A stretch of DNA of 63,528 nucleotides, counting the filler, from Reclinomonas americana ATCC 50394 (taxonomy: Eukaryota): NCBI GenBank assembly GCA_048213135.1. It is 8 parts of 4 records of this genome, joined end to end, with 100 filler letters (N's around TTAATTAATTAA, not from the genome) between each part and the next. Parts side by side here need not be neighbours in the genome. Positions count along the whole stretch, not along the records: positions 21,980 to 31,815 come from PS015558.1; 7 more parts are not named here. One strand, written 5' to 3'. Under the pieces are notes generated by a model. The model did no database searches. It saw only the letters and a list, made by a program, of their open reading frames with translations, and had not been told where the DNA came from. How positions within the stretch are numbered: the stretch's first letter is position 1; every line of letters starts with the position of its first letter. Of this stretch, positions 1 through 47,451 are shown piece after piece. The position numbers were made by a program, and so were the translations under genes.

Positions 1-3000
1 CTCGTGCAGGTTTACCGCATTCTCGTTCGCCGAAGGATTCAATGCCGGCGGCGAAGGCGGTGAATCCAGCCGTGGTGGCAAGGCAGCTCCGGCTGCGGCT
101 GCCGCCAAGAAGCCTGCGGCACCGGCAAAGGGCGGCAAAGCTGGTCGTTGCGTCACACTGCTCTTTTCGCACTTTTCTCTCTGATTTCGCTCGCTGCTCA
201 CTGTTGGTTGCGCGATCACAGCTGGCGCGGCGGCTGGTTTCAACCTGGGTCCATTCACCATTAGTCCATTTACCGGCGTGGTGGAGCCGGATCAGACGGT
301 CACGGTCACGGTGGAGTTTGCGGCGCGGGGAGCTGCGCTGTTCTCGGAGGAGCTTGGCATTCACGTGCAGGATCGCGATTTCCGTGACCATCCCGAGGGC
401 ATCAAGTTCATCCTGGAGGGCGAGAGCGCCACTCCCGGCATTCTCTGCCGCGACTACGAGACCATCTTTGAGGAGCAGCAGGTGGTCAAGCAGCTGGACG
501 TCATGGCGCAGCAGCAGTGCGTGTTTGCAGAGGACCAGCGCGTCTTCTCGTTCGGCACTGTCCTTGCGCGCACCGAGGTGAGAATATTCGTGCATGTCGA
601 GTTTGGTGGGTGTTGTTGCTCAATTGTTTCTTGTGCGTGTGTCTCTAGGTTCGACAGCGCTTCCGCATTTCGAACCCCTTCAAGATTCCGTGCGACGTGA
701 CTGTGGCTCTGCGCAAGACCGACACCGCGCCGGAGATGGTGTTCGCCGTGGAACCCGATCGGCTCAGCATCCCACCGCACGACTACCGCTACGTCACTGT
801 CACGTTCAAGCCGCAGTCGCTGAACGCCTTCTCGGCGACCTTTGTCGCCACCGTGGTCAACGGACCCGACGCCAAGACGAACAATTTGACGTTTGATCTG
901 CGCGGCGACGGTACGCTCCCTCGCATCAGCGTGCTGCGCCCGGCCGATCGGCTGCCGACGGGCCAGCTGCCGCTGCCGTTCCCGCGCACGTTTATCGGCA
1001 AGACCTCCAAGTCGTCGATTGCCGTGCGCAACGACGGAGTCCTGCCGGCATCGTTCCGCTTTGATCTGCCGCAGCACGCGGCCTTCTCGTTCGCGCAGCG
1101 AGGCCGCGATCTCAGTTGCGCACGCCGCTGTTTTATATTTGTTGCCTGTTGATGACCTGACCTGGCGATCGGCACAGCTCTCGCGCCACGTGAGCAAATG
1201 GAACTGGAGGCACTCTTCTGCCCGACGGCAACCGAAAAGTACCAGGCCGAGATGAAGATCATTGTGTTCAACAACTCGTTCGAGGTGCGTTTGTTTGTGT
1301 GTATCAATCTGCCTCCACTCGCACGCCTGTGTCACTCATTCACTTCTCTCTTTCCCTCCTGCAGCAATCGACATTCTTGCTCACGGGCGAGGGCTTCACC
1401 GAGGACCTCACGCTGGAGGACCTGAAGTTGGATGCCACCGACGTGTTGCAACTGGGCGACTGTGCTGTGGGCGCCTCCAAGGATGCCGCATTCACGATTG
1501 CCAATCACTCTGGTCGGTGCTTCCGCTTCGAGTGGCAAGTGCCGAATCCGGCCGTCACCGTGTCTCCGCAAGTTGGCCATCTGCACCCGCACGCTCGCAA
1601 GGACGTGGTGATTAGCGTATCATCGGCGCAGGCCGTGGACATTGCCAAGGTGCAGTGCATGCTCAAGGCGGTGGAGGTGCGCCACTCGTCGGAGGACACC
1701 AACGACTGGGACGATCGCATGAAGAGTGTGCGGTGGGAAGACGCGCCGCCTGCCGCTGCCGGTGCCGCCGGGTCGTCGTCATCAGCGCCAAGTGCTCGCA
1801 GTCCACCGACTGCGCCTGGTCGGAAAGTGCGCGTGGTCGAGGTCGATCGCGAGCCTCCTGTGCAGCCAGTGGCTGGCGCGGCGCCGATCCAGAAGCAAGT
1901 GCAAGTCAGCGCCAAGATCGGCTACAGCCGCTTCGAGTGCGCCACCACAGCGGTTGCCTTCAAGCCGACGCTCCTGTTCCAGTCGCGCGTCTTCAAGTTC
2001 CCCTTGCGCAACACTGGCCTCGTGGCGTTGCACTTTGCGTGGGCGATGGAGCACGCGGACGAAGCCGGTGTGGTGGAGGACGAGTCGTCGTTCTCGGTGG
2101 CGCCGCGCACCGGCGTCATTGCACCGGGCGATCAGCAAGAGATCACAGTGCGATACTCGCCAAACGACGTCGACTCGCATCGCGCTGCGCTGGCGTTGGA
2201 GGTGGCCAACTTGGACCCGAGTCTGCGCCCCGTGCGCATTCCGCTCACTGGTCAGACGCTCTGTCCTGCGGTGCACTTTGAGGTGCCATTCAGCTCCTAC
2301 AAGCACAACACCGATCTTCCGGGCCCCGGTGGCAAGTTTGGTCCGCTCGACCCGGAGACGCGCGTCATTGAGTTTGAGTCGAAGGGCGTCAAGATCCGCA
2401 ACACCAAGCGATTCTACATTCTCAACCCGACCAACACCATGTACGAGGTGCGTGCCATCGCCACTGCCACCGCCATCACAGTTGTCATTCATTAAGATCG
2501 TGTTGCTCAATCTGTGTGACTACCCACCAATCGCAGTTCTTCTTCGAGTCAGAAGATGGTGAGTCGTCTGCGTACCCGGCCTTCAAGTGCCTCACGCCGC
2601 ACGGACTGGTGGCGTCGGGCAAGAAGTTTGAGATTGTGTTCGAGTTTACGCCCGACGCGCTCGCCACGGTGGAGTCGTTCTGGCGCTTCCGCATACCGAG
2701 TTTCAAGGTGTCCCAGCCGTTCATGCTGGTCGGCAAGGCACTGGAACCCGATCTGGTACTCGACAGAACCTTCATCAACTTCCACCACCTCCTGGTTGGC
2801 GCGTACTCGCGAGAGGTGGTGCATCTGGTGAACCGCGAGATTGTGCCGTACACATTCTCGTTTGACGAGAAGACCTTGGAGACTGGCGACGAGCAGCCTG
2901 TGCTCAGCGTCTCTCCACTGTCTGGTGTGGTCGGTCCGGAGAGTCAGTTGCCCATTGAGGTGCGTGCGTGCATGCGTGTGCCTGGTGAGTGACGTGGAGC

Positions 3001-3414
3001 TGCTTGCTCACTCGTCGTTTATCACACAGATTGTGTTCAATCCACGCGCGGAAAAGAGCTTCAACTTCAACTTGGTGTGCAACGTGCGCAAGAAGCCCTC
3101 ACACATCACTCTCAATGTGAAGGGCGAAGGCTTCATGGTGCACGACGAGATTCAGCTGGTGGCACACGATGGACAGACGATGCCTCTTGCCGCCGGCGTC
3201 ACCAATCGCATTGACTTTGGCGAGGTGTCGGTCAACGAACGCCACGTGCGCAAGTTGCGCGTCCTCAACCACGGCAAGTACAACTTTGACTTTTCCTGGA
3301 CGCTGCCGTCGCATCCGTATCTCGGCCTCACGCCAAGTACGTCGCCTGCATGTTTTGAGCCCCTCAGATCGCTTTTCTCATTTTGCGTGCAGAGCTGGGC
3401 ACGGTGAGCCGTGG
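1..3414 (+). CDS. HYDIN: HYDIN-like axonemal central-pair protein, internal multi-exon part (5' end outside window)
   Basis: Spliced reading of ORFs 278..700, 697..1152, 1299..2495, 2516..2992 and 2841..3407 gives tandem ASH/PapD-like modules and HYDIN-like motifs (NDWDDRMKSVRW, FKPTLLFQSRVFKFPLRNTG, LDPETRVIEFESKGVKIRNTKRFYILNPTN, FNFNLVCNVRKK). Phase-compatible GT-AG introns include 578-648, 1115-1177 and 2448-2536. Confidence 0.85.
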
Positions 3415-3448
3415 ANNNNNNNNNNNNNNNNNNNNNNNNNNNNNNNNN

Positions 3449-5560
3449 TACCAGCTGCTCCGTCTTGGCCGGCACCACCACCGACGGTGGCACCTGCACA
3501 TCCTCGCTTGGACATTGCACAGTGAGGGTGACGGGCCGATCGAGAGGGTTGTCCACCATCACTCCGCCCTCGATGCGTTGCCGTGTCGGCGCCTCCATCA
3601 CCACCTCACGCGGGGCGGCATTCGACGTGGTCACCGTCACCGGACGCACAATGTACTCGCCCGAGTCGTCGTTGGTGAAGCGCACGGTGCCAGAGGTGGC
3701 GCGTGCCTTGTAGTCGCACACCGACAGCTTGTAGGTACGCTCCTGGTTGCCGGGCACATCGAGGTAATCGAGACCCTCGATGCGGCACGCTCCATCGGTC
3801 GCAAACTCTCGCTGCACACGGAATCGCTGCGGCACCGGCAGCCAGTTGCGCACAGGGATCGACACCGACTGCGTCACCTTGGCCGGCATGTTGTGCTCGA
3901 TCTTGGAGGCGTCGGCCGGTGGATCCGAGTTGCCAGTGAGACCGTACAGCAGCGCACTAAGAGAGAGACGACGAGTCAGTTGCAGGCCACACCATGGCAC
4001 AGGCTGGCTTCCTTTTTCACGACGCACCTGCCGTCCGGCAACGGAATGAACAAGGAGCCAGAGTGTGGTGCACCCTTGGTCATCGACAGCGGCCGATACG
4101 CGATGCGGTACTTGACAGTCTGCTTCGGTGGCACCTCCACTCGGTCGGCGCCGCTAAACGCTTCGTGCGAAAAATTCGGTCGCAGCACCCATCTCTCGTC
4201 GGTCGGATTGTTAATGTCCACCTGCTCAGCCGCCTCCTCGCGAACACGAGCCTGCGACACGCGCATGTAAGTGCACACACAGTCACACATGATGCAAGTA
4301 AAAATGAGTGTGCAATAGGCGCGCGCACCTTGAAGTTGACTTGCTTGGTCTGGCTGGGCTGATCGACGCACATGCCCATTAGTGTCAGGAAGAGTGGATC
4401 GGAGCCCTCGATAAACAGTGGGATGTGATCGGCCACAATGTCCGGGTTCAGCTGCTTCGGTTCAAAGGTGACGGTGAATGCAAAATCGCTGCCGGCCGGA
4501 GCGTACCCCTGTTGGTTGACGCAGAAAAAATTGATGTGAGCGAAAGAGACGTCATTGTTTTTTTGGTCCCGCACTCCACACACACATACCTCCAACGGTG
4601 ACATTGTAAAGTGAGGCTGGAACTGCACAGGGCTCCACTGGAATTTGACGCCAACATCTCCCGTGTTCTCCAAGTTTAGTCTCCTCACCACGCTGGTGCC
4701 ACGCACCACAGCACCAAACGACAGGCTGCGCCAAGCACACACAGCATGCTCGTCAGTCACGAGCAAAGACTGCAAAAAGAATAAAACTGCGATCGGATAC
4801 ACACCTGGACGACTCCAGCTTCACTTCCACGCCCTGGCACGACCCGGAGACGACCGCCAGCGGCTGCCTTGTGGCTGTGATAGGGCGGAAAAAAGAAGGT
4901 GGAATCAGCGTCATTGGGCACGCATGTCGGCAGATCAGTAACAGCGAGAGAGACACACGCACCTGCCACGTCAATAAAGACGTTCTCGCTGAACGGACGC
5001 AAGCGCGACGGTGGTGCAAAGGTGAACTCCACAGGGAACTGTTCGCGCGGTCGCAGCAACTGCGGCCGTGTGAGGTTGCACGTGACGAAATTCTTGGCCA
5101 ACGCCGCCAGCGACTCTTCCGTGACCACCACTGGGGCCGCAACGCGGCTCCTGTTCACAATCATCACCTCCTTGCGCGTCAAGTCTCCCACACGCACAGT
5201 GCCGAGACCGAGCGTGGTCTGCGCTGGATTCATCAGGTCGACCTTTGGTACAATGCCCTCGCCACTGATCGACACGTTGACCGTGTACAGGCCGTTGATC
5301 TCAAACGGCACCACGGTCGTGTACTTTTCGACCTTGCGCGGATGGAACAGGATCTACACCAAGACGAGAAAGTCAGGCACTGGTGGAATATGGACTGAAA
5401 TCGGCGACCGCCACAGACCTCCACTGCGCGTTGCTCCCGAGGTGCGAGCACACTGGCAGCGGCTCGGACCTCCAAGTGCTCCTGGTTCTCGTACAACACG
5501 TCGAAACTGATTTCCTTGTTATCATCGTTGCTGATGATGAGCATGGTTCTCTGTGCGCGC
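3449..5560 (-). CDS. HYDIN: Continuation (more C-terminal exons) of the HYDIN-like gene on an inverted contig
   Basis: Minus-strand exons encode VPFEINGLYTVNVSISGEG, LSFGAVVRGTSVVRRLNLENTGDVGVKFQW, YRPLSMT..HSGSLFIPLPDG and VRNWLPVPQRFRV..IEGLDYLDVPG. These are HYDIN C-terminal-type motifs. The segment is bounded by N gaps on both sides. Confidence 0.8.
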
Positions 5561-5612
5561 AAGTGTGAGAACAGGCGAGAGAGCACGCAGTGTGCTGTGG
5601 TGGTGGTAGTGG

Positions 5613-22054: not shown

Positions 22055-24749
22055 GTGCATGCGCAGTGCCTTGTGATTGACAATGCAATGCAGTCCACGA
22101 CATGCGGGGCCGACACTGGGCGCACGACCAGTGGAGCTGCTGATTGGTGATGAGGCGCAGTTGAAGCGCGGATCGCTGGTGCTCTCGTATCCGATGCAGC
22201 ATGGGATTGGTGTGTGTGTGTGAGAGTGGGAAGTTGTCTTTGTGTTGATCTTGTTGCTGAGTGTGTGCGCAGTCACCGACTGGGGCGACATGGAGAGGAT
22301 ATGGCATCATGTGTTTGCCACGGAGCTGCGTGTGGATCCGTCAAAGCACCCAGTGTTGTTGACGGAGGTGCCGTTGCATCCGCCGAGCATGCGCGAGGAG
22401 AGTTGCGTGCTTTTGCTCGTCTTCTTCGCCACTGTGATCTTACTGGTCGGTGTTGTCGTCGCAGTGGCGCGGATCATGTTTGAAAAGTTCAACGTGCCGT
22501 CGCTGTATGTGCAAGTGCAGGCGGTTCTGGCGTTGTACGCATCGGGGCGCACCACTGGCATTGTGCTGGACTCGGGAGATGGAGTGACGCACTGTGTGCC
22601 GGTGTTTGAGGGATACGCGCTGCCGCATGCCATTGATCAGTCGCAGTTGGCGGGGCGTGCGCTCACCGATTATATGATGGAGGTGTGTGTCTTCTCTCGC
22701 ACTTTCTCTTTCGCTCACTTTGCTCTCTCTCTCTCTCTCTCTCTCTTGTCTCTTCCCGCGAATCTTTGCTCTCGTTCCTCCTTTGTTTTCTTTCTTGCTT
22801 ACTCTGTGTCGCCTTCGGTTCTCCTCTCCTCTCGTGCACTCGCTGTCCTCCCATGATGTCTCTCTCACCTTCTCCCTTATCTCTGCCCTCCATCCTTTGC
22901 TTTCTCTCTCTTTCTCATTCTTCCTTTCTCTCTCTCTATCACTCCTTGTTTTTCCTTTCCTCCCTTCTCTTCTCTCTCCCTTCCCCTCCCTTCCCCCTCC
23001 CTCCCTCCCCCCCTCCCCTCCCCTGTCCTCACCCCCTCCGCAGCTCCTTGCCGGCCTCGGCCGCCGCTTCTCCACCACCGCCGAACGAGAAATCGCTCGC
23101 GACATGAAGGAGCGCCTGTGCTACGTGGCCGACGACTACGCAGCCGAGCTCGGCAAGTACGGCGGCGTGGGTGGATCAAAGGCGGCGGCCGCCGCCGCAG
23201 CAGGCAGCGGTGACATTCAGCGCGAGTACGAGTTGCCCGACGGACAAATGGTGACACTCGGCGCCGAGCGCTTCCAGTGCGCCGAGGCACTCTTCCGACC
23301 GTCGCTAGTGGGCTCCGNNNNNNNNNNNNNNNNNNNNNNNNNNNNNNNNNNNNNNNNNNNNNNNNNNNNNNNNNNNNNNNNNNNNNNNNNNNNNNNNNNN
23401 NNNNNNNNNNNNNNNNNNNNNNNNNNNNNNNNNNNNNNNNNNNNNNNNNNNNNNNNNNNNNNNNNNNNNNNNNNNNNNNNNNNNNNNNNNNNNNNNNNNN
23501 NNNNNNNNNNNNNNNNNNNNNNNNNNNNNNNNNNNNNNNNNNNNNNNNNNNNNNNNNNNNNNNNNNNNNNNNNNNNNNNNNNNNNNNNNNNNNNNNNNNN
23601 NNNNNNNNNNNNNNNNNNNNNNNNNNNNNNNNNNNNNNNNNNNNNNNNNNNNNNNNNNNNNNNNNNNNNNNNNNNNNNNNNNNNNNNNNNNNNNNNNNNN
23701 NNNNNNNNNNNNNNNNNNNNNNNNNNNNNNNNNNNNNNNNNNNNNNNNNNNNNNNNNNNNNNNNNNNNNNNNNNNNNNNNNNNNNNNNNNNNNNNNNNNN
23801 NNNNNNNNNNNNNNNNNNNNNNNNNNNNNNNNNNNNNNNNNNNNNNNNNNNNNNNNNNNNNNNNNNNNNNNNNNNNNNNNNNNNNNNNNNNNNNNNNNNN
23901 NNNNNNNNNNNNNNNNNNNNNNNNNNNNNNNNNNNNNNNNNNNNNNNNNNNNNNNNNNNNNNNNNNNNNNNNNNNNNNNNNTCCTCCCCTTCCCCCTCCC
24001 CTTCCCCCCTCCCCTCCCTCCCCCCCTCCCCTCCCCCTGTCCTCACCCCTCCGCAGCTCCTTGCCGGCCTCGGCCGCCGCTTCTCCACCACCGCCGAACG
24101 AGAAATCGCTCGCGACATGAAGGAGCGCCTGTGCTACGTGGCCGACGACTACGCAGCCGAGCTCGGCAAGTACGGCGGCGTGGGTGGATCAAAGGCGGCG
24201 GCCGCCGCCGCAGCAGGCAGCGGTGACATTCAGCGCGAGTACGAGTTGCCCGACGGACAAATGGTGACACTCGGCGCCGAGCGCTTCCAGTGCGCCGAGG
24301 CACTCTTCCGACCGTCGCTAGTGGGCTCCGAAGAGGGCGGCATCCCACGCATGATTTACGACTGCATCCAAAAGTGCGCCCTCGACGTGCGCAAGGATCT
24401 CTTTGGCAATGTGGTGCTGTCGGGCGGCAGCACCATGTTCCCCGGTTTGCCCGAGCGCGTGCAGCGTGAACTGACGGCCCTGGTGCCGCAAGAGCAGCAG
24501 CAGCAGCAGAGTGGTTCATCGTCGTCCTCGTCGTCTTCCCTGGGTGGCTCGCCGGTCCTGGTCAAGGTGGTGGCGCCGGCCGAGCGCAAGTACTCGGTGT
24601 GGGTCGGCGGTGGCATTCTCGCCTCGCTCACGGCCTTCCAGTCCGAGTGGATCTCCAAGATGGAATTCGAGGAGCACGGTCCGCGCATCATGCACGCCAA
24701 GCAGCGGAGGAAACTGCGCGAGGCCCGCGCAAACAGTGAACGTCGCTAA
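21602..24749 (+). CDS. Divergent actin / actin-related protein, multi-exon
   Basis: Spliced [95 protein letters not shown] and [16 protein letters not shown]. The gene runs across the spacer at 21880-21979. Confidence 0.93.
23008..24329 (+). repeat. Duplicated intron end plus exon on both sides of an N gap (probably unmerged contig overlap)
   Basis: Exon sequence 23044-23317 is repeated apparently identically from 24057, and the first copy stops at the gap. Confidence 0.8.
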
Positions 24750-24796
24750 TAGTGTCCCCTCGTCCTCTCCTCGTTGATTGACGGCGGCAGGCAGAG

Positions 24797-26503
24797 ATGA
24801 CCGAGAGCGGTGAGCGCCGCATTCGGCTGCGACGCGACGTGGAAGATGGCATTGCGGAGTCATCCGACGACGAGGAGACCACACCAGCGACAGCGGCCGC
24901 CGAGCAGGCGCTGGATGAGCGCGACCGCCTTCTCCGTTCGGCCACTGGTGCCGCTGCGCAGGGCGACTATGAGACCTCCGAGGCAGCCTTCCGCAGCGCA
25001 CTGGACATGCGAGTCGATGCCGACACGCTGGACTCGCTCGGGCAGGTTCTTCCTTTCGGCGGCCATGTGCACATGCACATCTGCTGACCTTTCCCCTTCC
25101 CCAATCCTTGCACAGATTCTTCTGGAGCAAGGCAAGATCGACGATGCTGTGAAGATATGTCTATCTCTCTCTCTCACACACTCTCTATTGGTAACACATC
25201 GGGGCTGACAAGTGAGTGTACGTGTTCCAGCAGAGCTGCGAGGTGGACCCGGACGGATCATTCGTCAAGTACCTCAATCTGGCTCAGCTGACCGGCGGCA
25301 TGGAGTCGGTGCAGCTGTATGAGCGTGCGTGCCAGGTGATCCGCTTGCAGCTGCAGCAGCACGAGGCACGCAAGAACCCGCTCTTTCAAGGCGTTGCGTT
25401 TATACTCTCGTGCAGGCGTGAGGCCAGTTGTCAGTCGCTGATGGATTGGTGTGTGTAGAATGTGGACAAGAAGATGGGCGAGCTGCGCGCGAGTCTGGCG
25501 GAGGCGTTGGCGGCGATCGCCGAGGTGTATCTGACCGATCTGTGCTTTGAGCCGAATGCAGAGGAAGTGTGCGAGCGTTCGCTCAGTGGTGAGGAGACGG
25601 AGAGAAAGAGGGGATCTGTGTCGTGCACTTTTTTGTTTATAAGGTGAGCCGCCATGTGCAGAGGCTGTGGAGGCCGATCCGCGGTGCATGGAGGTGCACC
25701 AGACAATGGCGAGCGTGCGGCTGAGTCAGGGTCGCGACGACGAAGCGCGGCAGTGCCTGGCCACTGCCGTCGAGATCTTCACCGCGATCGGTACTTTTTT
25801 GTTTCCCATCACTGCTACCCCACCCCTTCATGTTATGCTCACACTGCGTGGTGTAAAAACAGAGCGGCCGGAGGATGTGCCGTCAATGGCCACGCGAACT
25901 GCACTGGCCAAGCTGCTCATCGAGATCAACGAACTGAGCACGGCAATGGGCGTGCTGGAGCACATGGCCACGGAGGACGATCAGATTGGCGAGACGTGGT
26001 ACCTGCTCGGTCTGGTGGCGTCGATGCTGCCCGACCCCGAGTCGGCCGAGCGATCGTACGAGTACTTTGTCAATGCGTACGAGCTGGTGCACGGCGTGGA
26101 GGACGACGAGGAGTTGGCGCAAGATATTGCGAACCGCTGCCCGGCCGCCGTGCAGCAGGCGCTGCAGAATTTGGAGCGGCGTGCGCGCGGTGAAGACGTG
26201 GACGCCGACGACGACGAGGCCGGCGAAGACGAGGGCAACTACATGGATCCGCTGGCGGCCGTCATTGCAGCATACGAGGCCTCGGGGCATGTAGACGACG
26301 ATGACGACGATGATGCCGACGAGGAGGGCGCTGACATGGAGGAGGACGAGGCACCGGCGGCTGCAGACGGTGACGACGACGATGAAGACGATGACGACGA
26401 CGATGATGAGGAAGTGGAGGACACGAGGAAAAAGGCTCCGGTGGTATCGAAAGCGTACACCAATCGCAAGCACAGGCGGCGGCGGCATGGTGGCAGAAAG
26501 TGA
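24797..26503 (+). CDS. TPR protein, ACL4-like (Rpl4 assembly chaperone), with acidic then basic C-terminal tail
   Basis: Motifs LGQILLEQGKIDDAVKVFQQSCEVDPD, KYLNLAQLTGG, AIAEVYLTDLCFEPNAEEVCE, QTMASVRLSQ and RTALAKLLIE resemble the ACL4 family. Six exons. Confidence 0.8.
25155..25221 (+). other. Candidate AT-AC spliceosomal intron (67 nt)
   Basis: AAG|ATATGTC...GCTGAC AAGTGAGTGTAC|GTG TTC CAG. Removing it gives an exact TPR register. Confidence 0.6.
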
Positions 26504-27068
26504 ATGCGTTTCCTTGTCATGTTGTACAATGCATTGAGCGAGCACACGTTTGATTTGTCCACTTTGATCGTCACCAATCGTTGCGTGAGAACCCACCGTT
26601 CTGTTCTCCCTCGCGCGCGCTCTCTTCTCCATCTCCGTGAGCGCCCTGTGTGTGGCACACTCCTCGCACTCGCGACAATGCTTTTTTTCCATATGCGTGT
26701 GTGTGGGTAACCCGCCATGGTCATGTGCATCACCCTTCTCTCTGTCTTCCGCACCACCGCCACCCGCGAGACAAAGAGAAGAGAGACCACACAGGGAGGA
26801 AGAGGGGCACAGAGAGGCAGAGGGCGCCGATTCCATCCTCTTGTGTGTGCATTGTGATTCCCTTCGCTGATATACGTCATTTTAAGGAGTGGCCACTTTG
26901 CAGTTGCCCTCGCTCACACTCGCATCTCTTGTTTGCGCAGCCATCGTGCCAGTCAGTCGTGACCACAGTCCGACACTCGAAGCCTCCCCTCCCGCTCGCA
27001 CGCACCACACAGCCTGCATTCCTCCTTCGCACACTTGTACTTGCAAACAAGAAAGTCTTGAAGAAGTC

Positions 27069-45692: not shown

Positions 45693-45805
45693 GCGTGATA
45701 CGATACGAGAGCCGTTTTCACGTACGGACGGAGGACACGATTGATAAATGTTTGTAGTTTTTTTAATGAACGACGAGACAGAGAGGACTGCGTGCGTGCG
45801 TGCGC

Positions 45806-47451
45806 TTAGGGAATGCCACAGGCGACCACAGAGACACTGATCCAGCCGGCCAGCTTGTCGTCAAACGCGCTGCCGAAGATGATGTTGGCGTCCTCAAAGA
45901 CTTCGCGACGTACGCGCTCTGCTGCCGCCTCGACCTCGAAGCTGTTGCGCGGTTTGGTCAGTTTCTTTCGCTAACACCACCATCACCACCACCACTACAA
46001 CAACACGCAACAGTGTGAGATCGGGACCGCCGGTGATGTTGACCAGCACTGCCTTGGCGCCGCGCAGTGAAATGTCGTCCAGCAGCGGGTTGCTGCATGC
46101 ATCCCCGAGGTGAGACCATGACAGCAGCGCAACAGCAGAGGAAGAGAGCGCAACGTAATGGCCTTTTCCGCGGCGACCACGGCACGATCATCGCCCGTGG
46201 CGCGTCCGACTCCCATCAGCGCGCGCCCAGACTCGCTCATCATGACGGCACGCACATCGGAAAAATCGAGGTTCACCAGGCCGGGCACCAGCATGAGATC
46301 CGTCACCGATCTGCATGTGCACATGTGAACAAACCTCTCCACCACCACCACCACCACCACCACCATCACTGCAACGAACCTTACGGCCGTGTACAACACC
46401 TCGTCGGCCATGTGGAACGCCTCCTTCAGTGGCGTCTTCTTGGAGATGACACGAAAGAGGTTTTGATTCGGAATAACAATCAGTGTGTCGCACGCCTTGC
46501 GCAACACCGCCATGCCCTGCTCGGCCACTCGCATCCGATTGGCGCCCTCAAAGTGAAACGGTTTCGTCACCACCCCCACCGTCAAAATCCCCTGATGGGA
46601 GAAAAGAAGTCAGCGCCACAAGATATATACGTCTCGTTGCTTCTGCAGCAGCAGCTGTTGCGCACCATATTACGTGCTTCCTCGCAAATCACTGGCGCCG
46701 CACCAGTGCCCGTGCCACCGCCCATTCCCGCCGTCAAAAACAGCATGTTGGAGCCCTCAATGGCCTTGACGATCTCGTCCATTGACTGCACGGCCGCCGT
46801 GCGACCGGTCTCCGGATCGGCGCCGGCGCCGAGTCCTCGCGTCGTGCCCGGTCCCAGTTGAATCCGAACCGGCGCCTTGGACATTTCCAGCGCCTGCGCG
46901 TCGGTGTTGCAGGCGACAAAGCGCACCTTGTCGAGACCCGAACTGATCATGTTGTTGACGGCGTTGCCACCGGCGCCACCTGCGCCCACAATCTTTTACA
47001 CGCAGCGACGAGTTAGCACAAAAAGACTGCGGGAAAAAAAAGGAGCTTCCTCGGCTGACCGTGATGCGTGGGAGCACTGGATCGAAGGGCTTGGCCGATG
47101 GAGGTGCCGCGGCCGTGGCAGAGTTCCATGAGGAGGACGATGGTCGTCGATTGCCGACAGTGCTGCGACGATGGTTCAAGTGGGCAAGAGCGATGGTTCA
47201 AGTGGCAAAGGAGCGATGGTCATGCAACGCGCGTGTGTGCATGTGATGAGAGAGATGAAGAGAGAGCGATGCAGTACGACGGTTCTCGTGCGTGCGAGGC
47301 GATGATCGTGCACAGAAGAAGTGATCGGGTGTGTGAGCGTGTGTGCACACCTGCTGATCCCGATGCGTTTCCCTCCCGCGCTGTTGTTGCCACTGCCGCT
47401 GCTGCTGAACCAGCGTGCAAGCACACGACGATATGCGATCGCCGTCAGCAT
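45806..47451 (-). CDS. ftsZ: Nuclear-encoded mitochondrial FtsZ, short form without C-terminal tail, 7 exons
   Basis: Presequence-like [18 protein letters not shown], then [68 protein letters not shown] and [18 protein letters not shown] (TAA 45808-45806). Confidence 0.95.

Follow-up and report, generated by a model that had tools for sequence, protein, structure and literature searches.

Is the segment at 25155-25221, which begins with AT and ends with AC inside a conserved protein-coding gene, an intron, and if so which spliceosome removes it? An earlier note on this DNA had read it as an AT-AC intron with U2-type rather than U12-type signals. U2-type AT-AC introns amount to a few dozen cases, mostly in one vertebrate gene family, and their origin is unsettled. 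We took up the question in the Reclinomonas americana genome; positions refer to the window, the whole stretch of 63,528 nucleotides that was analysed.

An ACL4 gene with six exons

The gene at 24797..26503 lies on contig C551 of an intron-dense genome and, judged by homology, is an orthologue of ACL4, the TPR-protein assembly chaperone of ribosomal protein L4. This agrees with the identification proposed earlier: Acl4 (PDB 4ynv) was the top match for the 3′ part of the gene (E 2.6e-9), and the spliced six-exon model scored 296 bits on a profile of ACL4 homologues, covering profile positions 51-390. The profile was built from 87 of 150 homologues, 260-560 residues long, obtained by HMMER search. 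Word-based protein searches gave no match for ACL4, nor for the TMEM104-like and PEX2 exons described below. The predicted parts of the gene are as follows.

24797..26503, plus strand: ACL4 coding region, 6 exons, 452 aa
25046..25115, plus strand: intron 1, GT-AG, 70 nt, branch motif CTGAC, best canonical pair
25116..25154, plus strand: exon 2, 39 nt, last codon AAG
25155..25221, plus strand: putative intron 2, AT-AC, 67 nt, phase 0, U2-type, from splice ranking, second copy and gene model
25152..25162, plus strand: predicted 5′ splice site of intron 2, AAG|ATATGTCT, considered for pairing with U6, the U1s and U11
25204..25209, plus strand: predicted branch motif GCTGAC of intron 2, branch A at 25208, 13 nt to the 3′ end
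25211..25216, plus strand: two AG dinucleotides in intron 2, 4 and 8 nt past the branch A and too near it
25219..25221, plus strand: predicted 3′ splice site TAC of intron 2, from sequence and splice ranking
25222..25392, plus strand: exon 3, first codon GTG
25393..25458, plus strand: intron 3, GT-AG, with a GTTGCG donor of a shifted class
25589..25661, plus strand: intron 4, GT-AG, 73 nt
25791..25862, plus strand: intron 5, GT-AG, 72 nt, in a variable region where homology does not fix the ends

The 3′ end of intron 3 is likewise left unfixed by homology, an AG 15 nt downstream scoring 3 bits more.

Many loci are present twice at about 97% identity (e.g. locus L002 against window 24700-26600), so that the assembly appears to hold two haplotypes. 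Two of the contigs, C1 and C2, appear to be of bacterial origin. Elsewhere in the window, the same actin-like exon occurs at 22990-23317 and 24030-24335, either side of an N gap, probably through assembly duplication. A HYDIN/CFAP65-like ciliary gene lies at 1-5600 (Pfam Ig_CFAP65) and an N-terminally extended FtsZ-like gene at 45800-47400 (Pfam Tubulin/FtsZ); together they suggest a flagellated protist with a mitochondrial FtsZ.

Splice ends of intron 2

Read directly, the segment starts with ATATGTC and ends with GTGTAC, the upstream exon ends with AAG at 25154 and the frame resumes with GTG at 25222, exactly as given earlier. Its retention leads to a stop codon in both genomic copies. All 889 stop-free, frame-preserving splices around it were scored on the 87-homologue profile. 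The highest score, 296.2 bits, went to the AT-AC splice 25155-25221 and equally to two slid pairs without spliceosomal ends (GA-TA and AG-GT); homology cannot tell AT-AC from such pairs within a few bases, a slid GT-GT pair scoring 295.8 bits. Homology to the profile thus fixes the length of the intron exactly and its position to a few bases. AT-AC being the only recognised pair of ends within this range, we assigned these ends to intron 2; the excised segment, its splicing being inferred from sequence, almost certainly has AT and AC as its termini.

Ordinary GT-AG splicing, with an altered TPR helix and AT-AC ends by coincidence, would use canonical ends, and three such options are present. 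The best, 25159-25216, adds three residues and keeps an open frame in both copies, yet it reached only 287.0 bits (rank 69 of 889); 25149-25230, which removes five residues, ranked 452nd. Both had been named before; two further options had been missed, namely a donor at 25191, which takes in 12 intronic codons and ranks 367th or lower, and an AT-AG pair, 25155-25230, which removes three residues and ranks 279th. Overall the GT-AG options fall 9 to 19 bits below the AT-AC splice. The helix interrupted by the intron counts 16 residues between two anchor columns, free of any indel, in all 78 homologues that cover it (9 of the 87 in the profile do not cover the region).

Splice-site strength was judged with a self-trained gene model, which from about 470 kb predicted 1,186 major introns with a median of 67 nt and a branch core CTCAC/CTGAC. 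The alternative GT donors stand at percentiles 1.2, 2.8 and 1.0 of predicted donors. GAG acceptors do occur in 13 of the 1,186 introns, but the one at 25216 lies below every predicted acceptor (percentile 0.0) and 8 nt from the branch, whereas distances of 8 nt or less are found in 0.8% of predicted introns. In the second copy 25191-25230 is out of frame, although another AG is possible there (278 bits). The gene model itself picks AT-AC at this place even under a penalty of 7. We therefore consider GT-AG splicing of this segment improbable.

An error at 25155 or 25221 might be suspected in a draft-level assembly with many gaps. Both ends would have to be wrong, yet a separately assembled second copy of the gene on contig C60, 97% identical and distinguished by a 2-nt insertion within the intron, keeps both AT and AC, and AT-AC again ranks first, there among 853 splices. 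A sequencing or assembly error, which the earlier note had named as a possible refutation, is extremely unlikely.

Signals of intron 2 and of the minor introns

The donor of intron 2 is AAG|ATATGTCT. With G at +1 it would reach the 74th percentile of predicted major donors. The earlier likening of ATATGT to the GTATGT donors of this genome holds as to strength, but GTATGT is not typical, being found in only 16 of the 1,186 predicted major introns. Over +3 to +8 the log-probability of the donor is -7.1 under the U2 matrix against -14.3 under the U12 matrix, and that of the branch point is -4.4 against -22.8, a contrast that is partly circular, the U12 matrices having been built from introns picked by consensus (33 used). 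At +4 to +6 the donor fits the ACAGAGA of U6, which is canonical in this genome. It fits neither U11 at +4/+5 nor the ATATCCTT of the genome's own minor introns, and it departs from RTATCCTT. In the pairing register that we assumed for U11 and U6atac, neither RNA pairs with +5 G and +6 T; U11 duplex energies computed without a fixed register were out of register and were discarded.

At the branch, GGGGCTGAC fails to match positions one to four of the U12 box GAGUAAGGA and departs from the TCCTTRAC motif. CTGAC, by contrast with such minor signals, is the third commonest branch motif among introns with +5 G. The branch distance of 13 nt compares with medians of 15 nt in U12 introns and 19 nt in major introns; among the latter 16% have distances of 12-14 nt and 11% of 13 nt or less. 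Intron 2 is called U2-type on the grounds that it fits U6 and a major-type branch point and has none of the minor signals, in keeping with the previous reading both of the intron as a whole and of its U2-like GCTGAC, which could not pair with the U12 box. From these signals and the splice ranking, 25155-25221 is very probably a genuine, obligatory AT-AC intron whose removal falls to the major (U2-type) spliceosome.

The genome also encodes minor snRNAs, to which the earlier note had pointed as a check: U11, U6atac and a probable U12 were found. U11 scores 51 bits (cut-off 39; L005:1501-1625 and L006); at its position 8 the consensus G is replaced by U. U6atac scores 38 bits (cut-off 33; L003:1501-1632 and L004:1501-1630). 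The U12 candidate (L097:1501-1654 and L098) scores 26.5 bits, under the Rfam cut-off of 53 (E 0.13), and a U12 search at E 0.001 gave no match; its branch-binding box GAGUAAGGA is canonical and its 5′ GCCGC covaries with ACGG of U6atac. An element CCCACAA, at -69 to -71 of U11, U6 and U6atac, is absent upstream of the U12 candidate.

U6atac carries a box CACCGAGA in place of AAGGAGA and cannot pair with +6 and +7 of ATATCCTT donors. The idea that this altered box signals a changed minor donor was ruled out by the canonical ATATCCTT introns. With C at +5 and G at +6, donors of the GTTGCG class would suit the C14 and G15 of U6atac. The canonical minor-intron pattern has 206 matches in the genome (including overlapping matches, second copies and two apparently bacterial contigs) against 55 in a reversed control, and the minor introns fetched read ATATCCTT...CCTTGAC...YAC. 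Among loci selected from the list of pattern matches (L033-L074), minor introns seem mostly AT-AC rather than GT-AG (31 against 1); two loci, L039 and L048, hold two minor introns apiece. In 20 stretches of 10 kb placed arbitrarily, which together hold 474 introns, no minor intron was met, so that any expansion of the class must be modest.

With these snRNAs at hand, intron 2 could be viewed as a degenerate minor intron that is still spliced through U12 with the help of the odd U6atac. Its AT-AC ends, ATAT at +1 to +4 and short branch distance agree with this view, as do the presence of minor snRNAs and the departure of the U6atac box from AAGGAGA. Set against it are the +5 G and +6 T, unpaired with U11 and U6atac alike, and the four mismatches of the branch region to a U12 box that is itself canonical. 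Removal by the minor spliceosome accordingly has little to recommend it.

Two U1 snRNAs and their donors

Two kinds of U1 gene were found, each scoring 64 bits (cut-off 69.5). The canonical U1 (L117:1501-1673, minus strand) has the arm AUACUUACCUG, and the region upstream of it is a gap. The variant U1, present in two copies (L115:1501-1654, plus strand, and L116, on contigs C429 and C479), has the arm AUACGUAACUU, with changes U5-to-G, C8-to-A and G11-to-U, and carries CCCACAA at -65.

The variant arm AUACGUAACUU is complementary, one base shifted, to GTTRCGT donors. Donors of the GTT..G type (consensus GTTGCGT) make up 262 of 1,150 predicted introns, intron 3 of ACL4 (25393-25458) being an example; this class lacks the usual G at -1, and its branch motifs and lengths are like those of other major introns. 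For GTTRCGT donors the mean energy is -8.3 kcal/mol with the variant and -1.4 kcal/mol with the canonical U1; all U1 duplex energies given here leave out pseudouridine and U1-C.

Placed in the normal register, the variant leaves +1 unread, since its position 8 is A where the canonical arm has the C that reads G+1; the G at its position 5 reads C or U at +4. The donor of intron 2 forms eight Watson-Crick pairs and one G-U pair with the variant against seven pairs with the canonical U1; with G at +1 it would pair with the canonical U1 at -6.8 kcal/mol. In fixed register, the four AT-AC donors found in this genome (see below) give canonical/variant energies of -0.1/-3.5, -0.1/-3.5, -0.9/-4.3 and +0.1/-5.9 kcal/mol, the fit to the variant being inflated for PEX2 and the third gene by search patterns requiring G at -1 and A at +3. 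The reverse is seen for an ATAAGT site of metazoan type, with -7.3 kcal/mol for the canonical and -1.1 kcal/mol for the variant U1. By computed energy the variant is the better reader of all four, and it is a new observation that ATAYGT donors, which hardly pair with the canonical U1 (about 0 kcal/mol), form duplexes with the variant at -3.5 to -5.9 kcal/mol. In the literature, subscription papers and bioRxiv supplements aside, we met no description of AT-AC donors being recognised by a variant U1.

On these pairings the variant may be the main reader of the intron 2 donor, a proposal that we put forward tentatively, somewhat against the odds; the T at +4, taken as a fit to the variant, is also an expected remnant of U12 origin. 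It is rather unlikely, though conceivable, that the variant is a dedicated reader of ATAYGT...YAC introns, through which minor AT-AC introns would enter the major spliceosome directly, and that the ACL4 intron is an ancient major AT-AC intron.

Other AT-AC introns in the genome

The search for further AT-AC junctions, also envisaged in the earlier note, led to predicted introns of the same type in a TMEM104-like gene, in PEX2 and in a third gene. The first (L044:615-679, minus strand; second copy in L109), in a gene that we take to be TMEM104-like, was found without being sought. Scored on a profile built from 17 homologues, the AT-AC option came first of 293 splices, 13.6 bits ahead of the next recognised pair; the donor reads ATAC. 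For this gene (L109:3568-6616) 21 introns are predicted, along with micro-exons of 4-5 nt.

In PEX2 the intron lies at L089:1104-1170 (plus strand; second copy in L107). The upstream exon matches Pfam Pex2_Pex12 (E 9e-8) and gave no match in PDB; the downstream exon aligns with Pex2 of 7t92 from its first residue on (E 0.26). The third case, in a membrane-protein gene (L083:2044-2110, plus strand; second copy in L108) that is presumably GPR137/TOM1-like and has no Pfam match, draws its support from the gene model and from its presence in two copies. A further case at L059:1080-1143 (plus strand; L058/L059) is uncertain. The gene model at times prefers decoy ends as well, by up to 11 units and with margins similar to those of AT-AC; model calls by themselves are therefore no proof, and the third gene and L058/L059 are weakly grounded. 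TT-AC decoy ends were rejected as real introns, the two inspected cases being GT-AG introns. The genome thus holds at least three well-supported U2-type AT-AC introns, that of ACL4 among them.

Three genome-wide U2-type AT-AC patterns, all requiring G at -1 and two of them A at +3, showed no excess over reversed controls (25 against 72, 93 against 145 and 16 against 27), which implies that the class is small. From the matches examined, 2 of 22 were kept and then none of 12 (three further matches beside the 12 were second copies); the other 32 of the 34 were ordinary GT-AG introns or lay outside genes. Matches at L060, L061, L063, L075 and L076 were assessed by gene model only. No AT-AC case of ATAAGT type survived in two genome-wide pattern searches. 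In 459 kb unselected for U2-type AT-AC introns the rate was 1 in 1,302 predicted major introns; as a single event this is indistinguishable from the human 0.008% given in the available part of PMC1557818. Our literature search returned no paper that ties TMEM104 to minor or AT-AC introns, or ACL4 to AT-AC introns, and TMEM104, GPR137, ACL4 and PEX2 were all absent as terms from the accessible part of the PMC11347168 supplement.

Putative splicing pathway and origin of intron 2

A pathway for the removal of intron 2 can be proposed. Some U1 snRNP would bind the donor, strong apart from +1, U2 would bind GCTGAC, and the ACAGAGA of U6 would pair with UGU at +4 to +6. Once A25208 has served as branch point, the second step would favour an acceptor ending in C, owing to the A at +1, and so the TAC 13 nt away would be chosen; the AGs found 4 and 8 nt from the branch would be too near it, and a CAG at 22 nt would be a poor partner for A+1, although an AT-AG side product lacking three residues may arise. 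In yeast and human, a +1 G-to-A change is rescued by a change of the last base from G to C (PMC1557818 and PMC5029451, available parts). The intron would be trapped as AT-AC, since changing one end alone loses splicing.

The earlier note had offered two explanations, an intron caught converting from U12 to U2 or a permissive major spliceosome. The first is not borne out: hybrid features are lacking and nothing of a TCCTTGAC branch point remains, so any conversion would be complete rather than midway. The second proved too vague, given a donor strong apart from +1, a type as rare as 1 in 1,302 and a variant U1 that ignores +1.

A U12 origin is nevertheless plausible from the sequence, and two histories, both compatible with removal by the major spliceosome, have to be weighed. 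According to one, an old U12 AT-AC intron changed C+5 to G and C+6 to T, after which its branch point drifted. ATATGT is indeed ATATCC with the two changes proposed for rare direct conversion (PMC2831892, available part), and phase 0 with G at -1 is a context proposed as favourable to conversion (PMC7367187, available part). AT-AC introns predominate in the U12 class of this genome (31 against 1 among the loci selected from the pattern list), and ATAT is kept in three of the four donors, though GTAT makes up 3% of +5G donors. The branch point free of any U12 remnant, the ATAC donor of the TMEM104-like gene and the partial building of ATAT into the search patterns count against such a history. 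So does the comparison of TMEM104-like loci: none of the 51 homologous loci that show the motif (out of 69 related loci, many of them transcripts or intron-poor) carries an intron at that site; the L181 group has a GT-AG intron 13 nt upstream of it. For ACL4, a metagenome scan found no orthologous loci, and N-terminally cut homologues gave no hint of a common intron position. Conversion of a U12 intron comes, in our estimate, a little short of an even chance.

The other history, somewhat below even chances but to be taken seriously, is that a GT-AG major intron changed at both ends, or that a U2-type AT-AC intron was inherited from ancient times. AAG|GT is the usual context of major introns, the -6.8 kcal/mol computed above for G at +1 would suit a former canonical donor, and a U2-type AT-AC intron in TAF2 is common to human and fly (PMC1557818, available part). 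A double change, however, would have to pass through poorly spliced intermediates.

Comparison with known systems

The U2-type AT-AC intron is a rare but already known type, of which the ACL4 intron is a further case. What this genome brings together is a complete-looking, AT-AC-dominated minor system, several obligatory U2-type AT-AC introns in genes unrelated to one another and two U1 genes, and conversion against double change, as well as the identity of the U1 that reads these donors, become testable in a single organism. In practice, software for gene prediction that admits GT-AG introns only will splice ACL4, PEX2 and the TMEM104-like gene wrongly.

According to the available part of PMC1557818, U2-type AT-AC introns number 15 in human, 6 in mouse and 3 in fly, with none in worm or Arabidopsis. 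The ACL4 intron resembles the type II introns of human SCN4A/SCN5A and of human and fly TAF2 described in the same source: AT-AC ends, +5 G, +6 T and a major-type branch. There too the host genome has a minor spliceosome; the ACL4 case is predicted from sequence.

With canonical U12 AT-AC introns it shares the ends, ATAT at +1 to +4 and the short branch distance, and it differs from them in having neither the class-defining CCTT at +5 to +8 nor a TCCTTRAC branch (PMC3584512, available part). On the conversion path from U12 to U2 AT-AC outlined in the accessible text of PMC2831892, the ACL4 donor corresponds to the U12 consensus with C+5G and C+6T, a 'trapped' state; unlike what that path foresees, its +4 did not move to A.

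U1 snRNAs with altered 5′ arms are described in Entamoeba and Mastigamoeba (10.1101/2022.06.08.495308, available part). Mastigamoeba U1 shares with the variant U1 the change U5-to-G (ACGUAC), which suits a C at +4. In contrast to the Entamoeba and Mastigamoeba U1s, so far as that source covers them, the variant adds C8-to-A and G11-to-U, occurs in a genome that also has the canonical form, fits the shifted class of GTTRCGT donors and may have AT-AC donors among its targets.

Finally, the nested AT-AC intron of S. cerevisiae RPL30 likewise represents natural AT-AC splicing in which U12 signals are lacking. In RPL30, as given in the available part of PMC5029451, the AT-AC reaction is a side product of 1-2%, whereas removal of the ACL4 intron would be needed for the protein.
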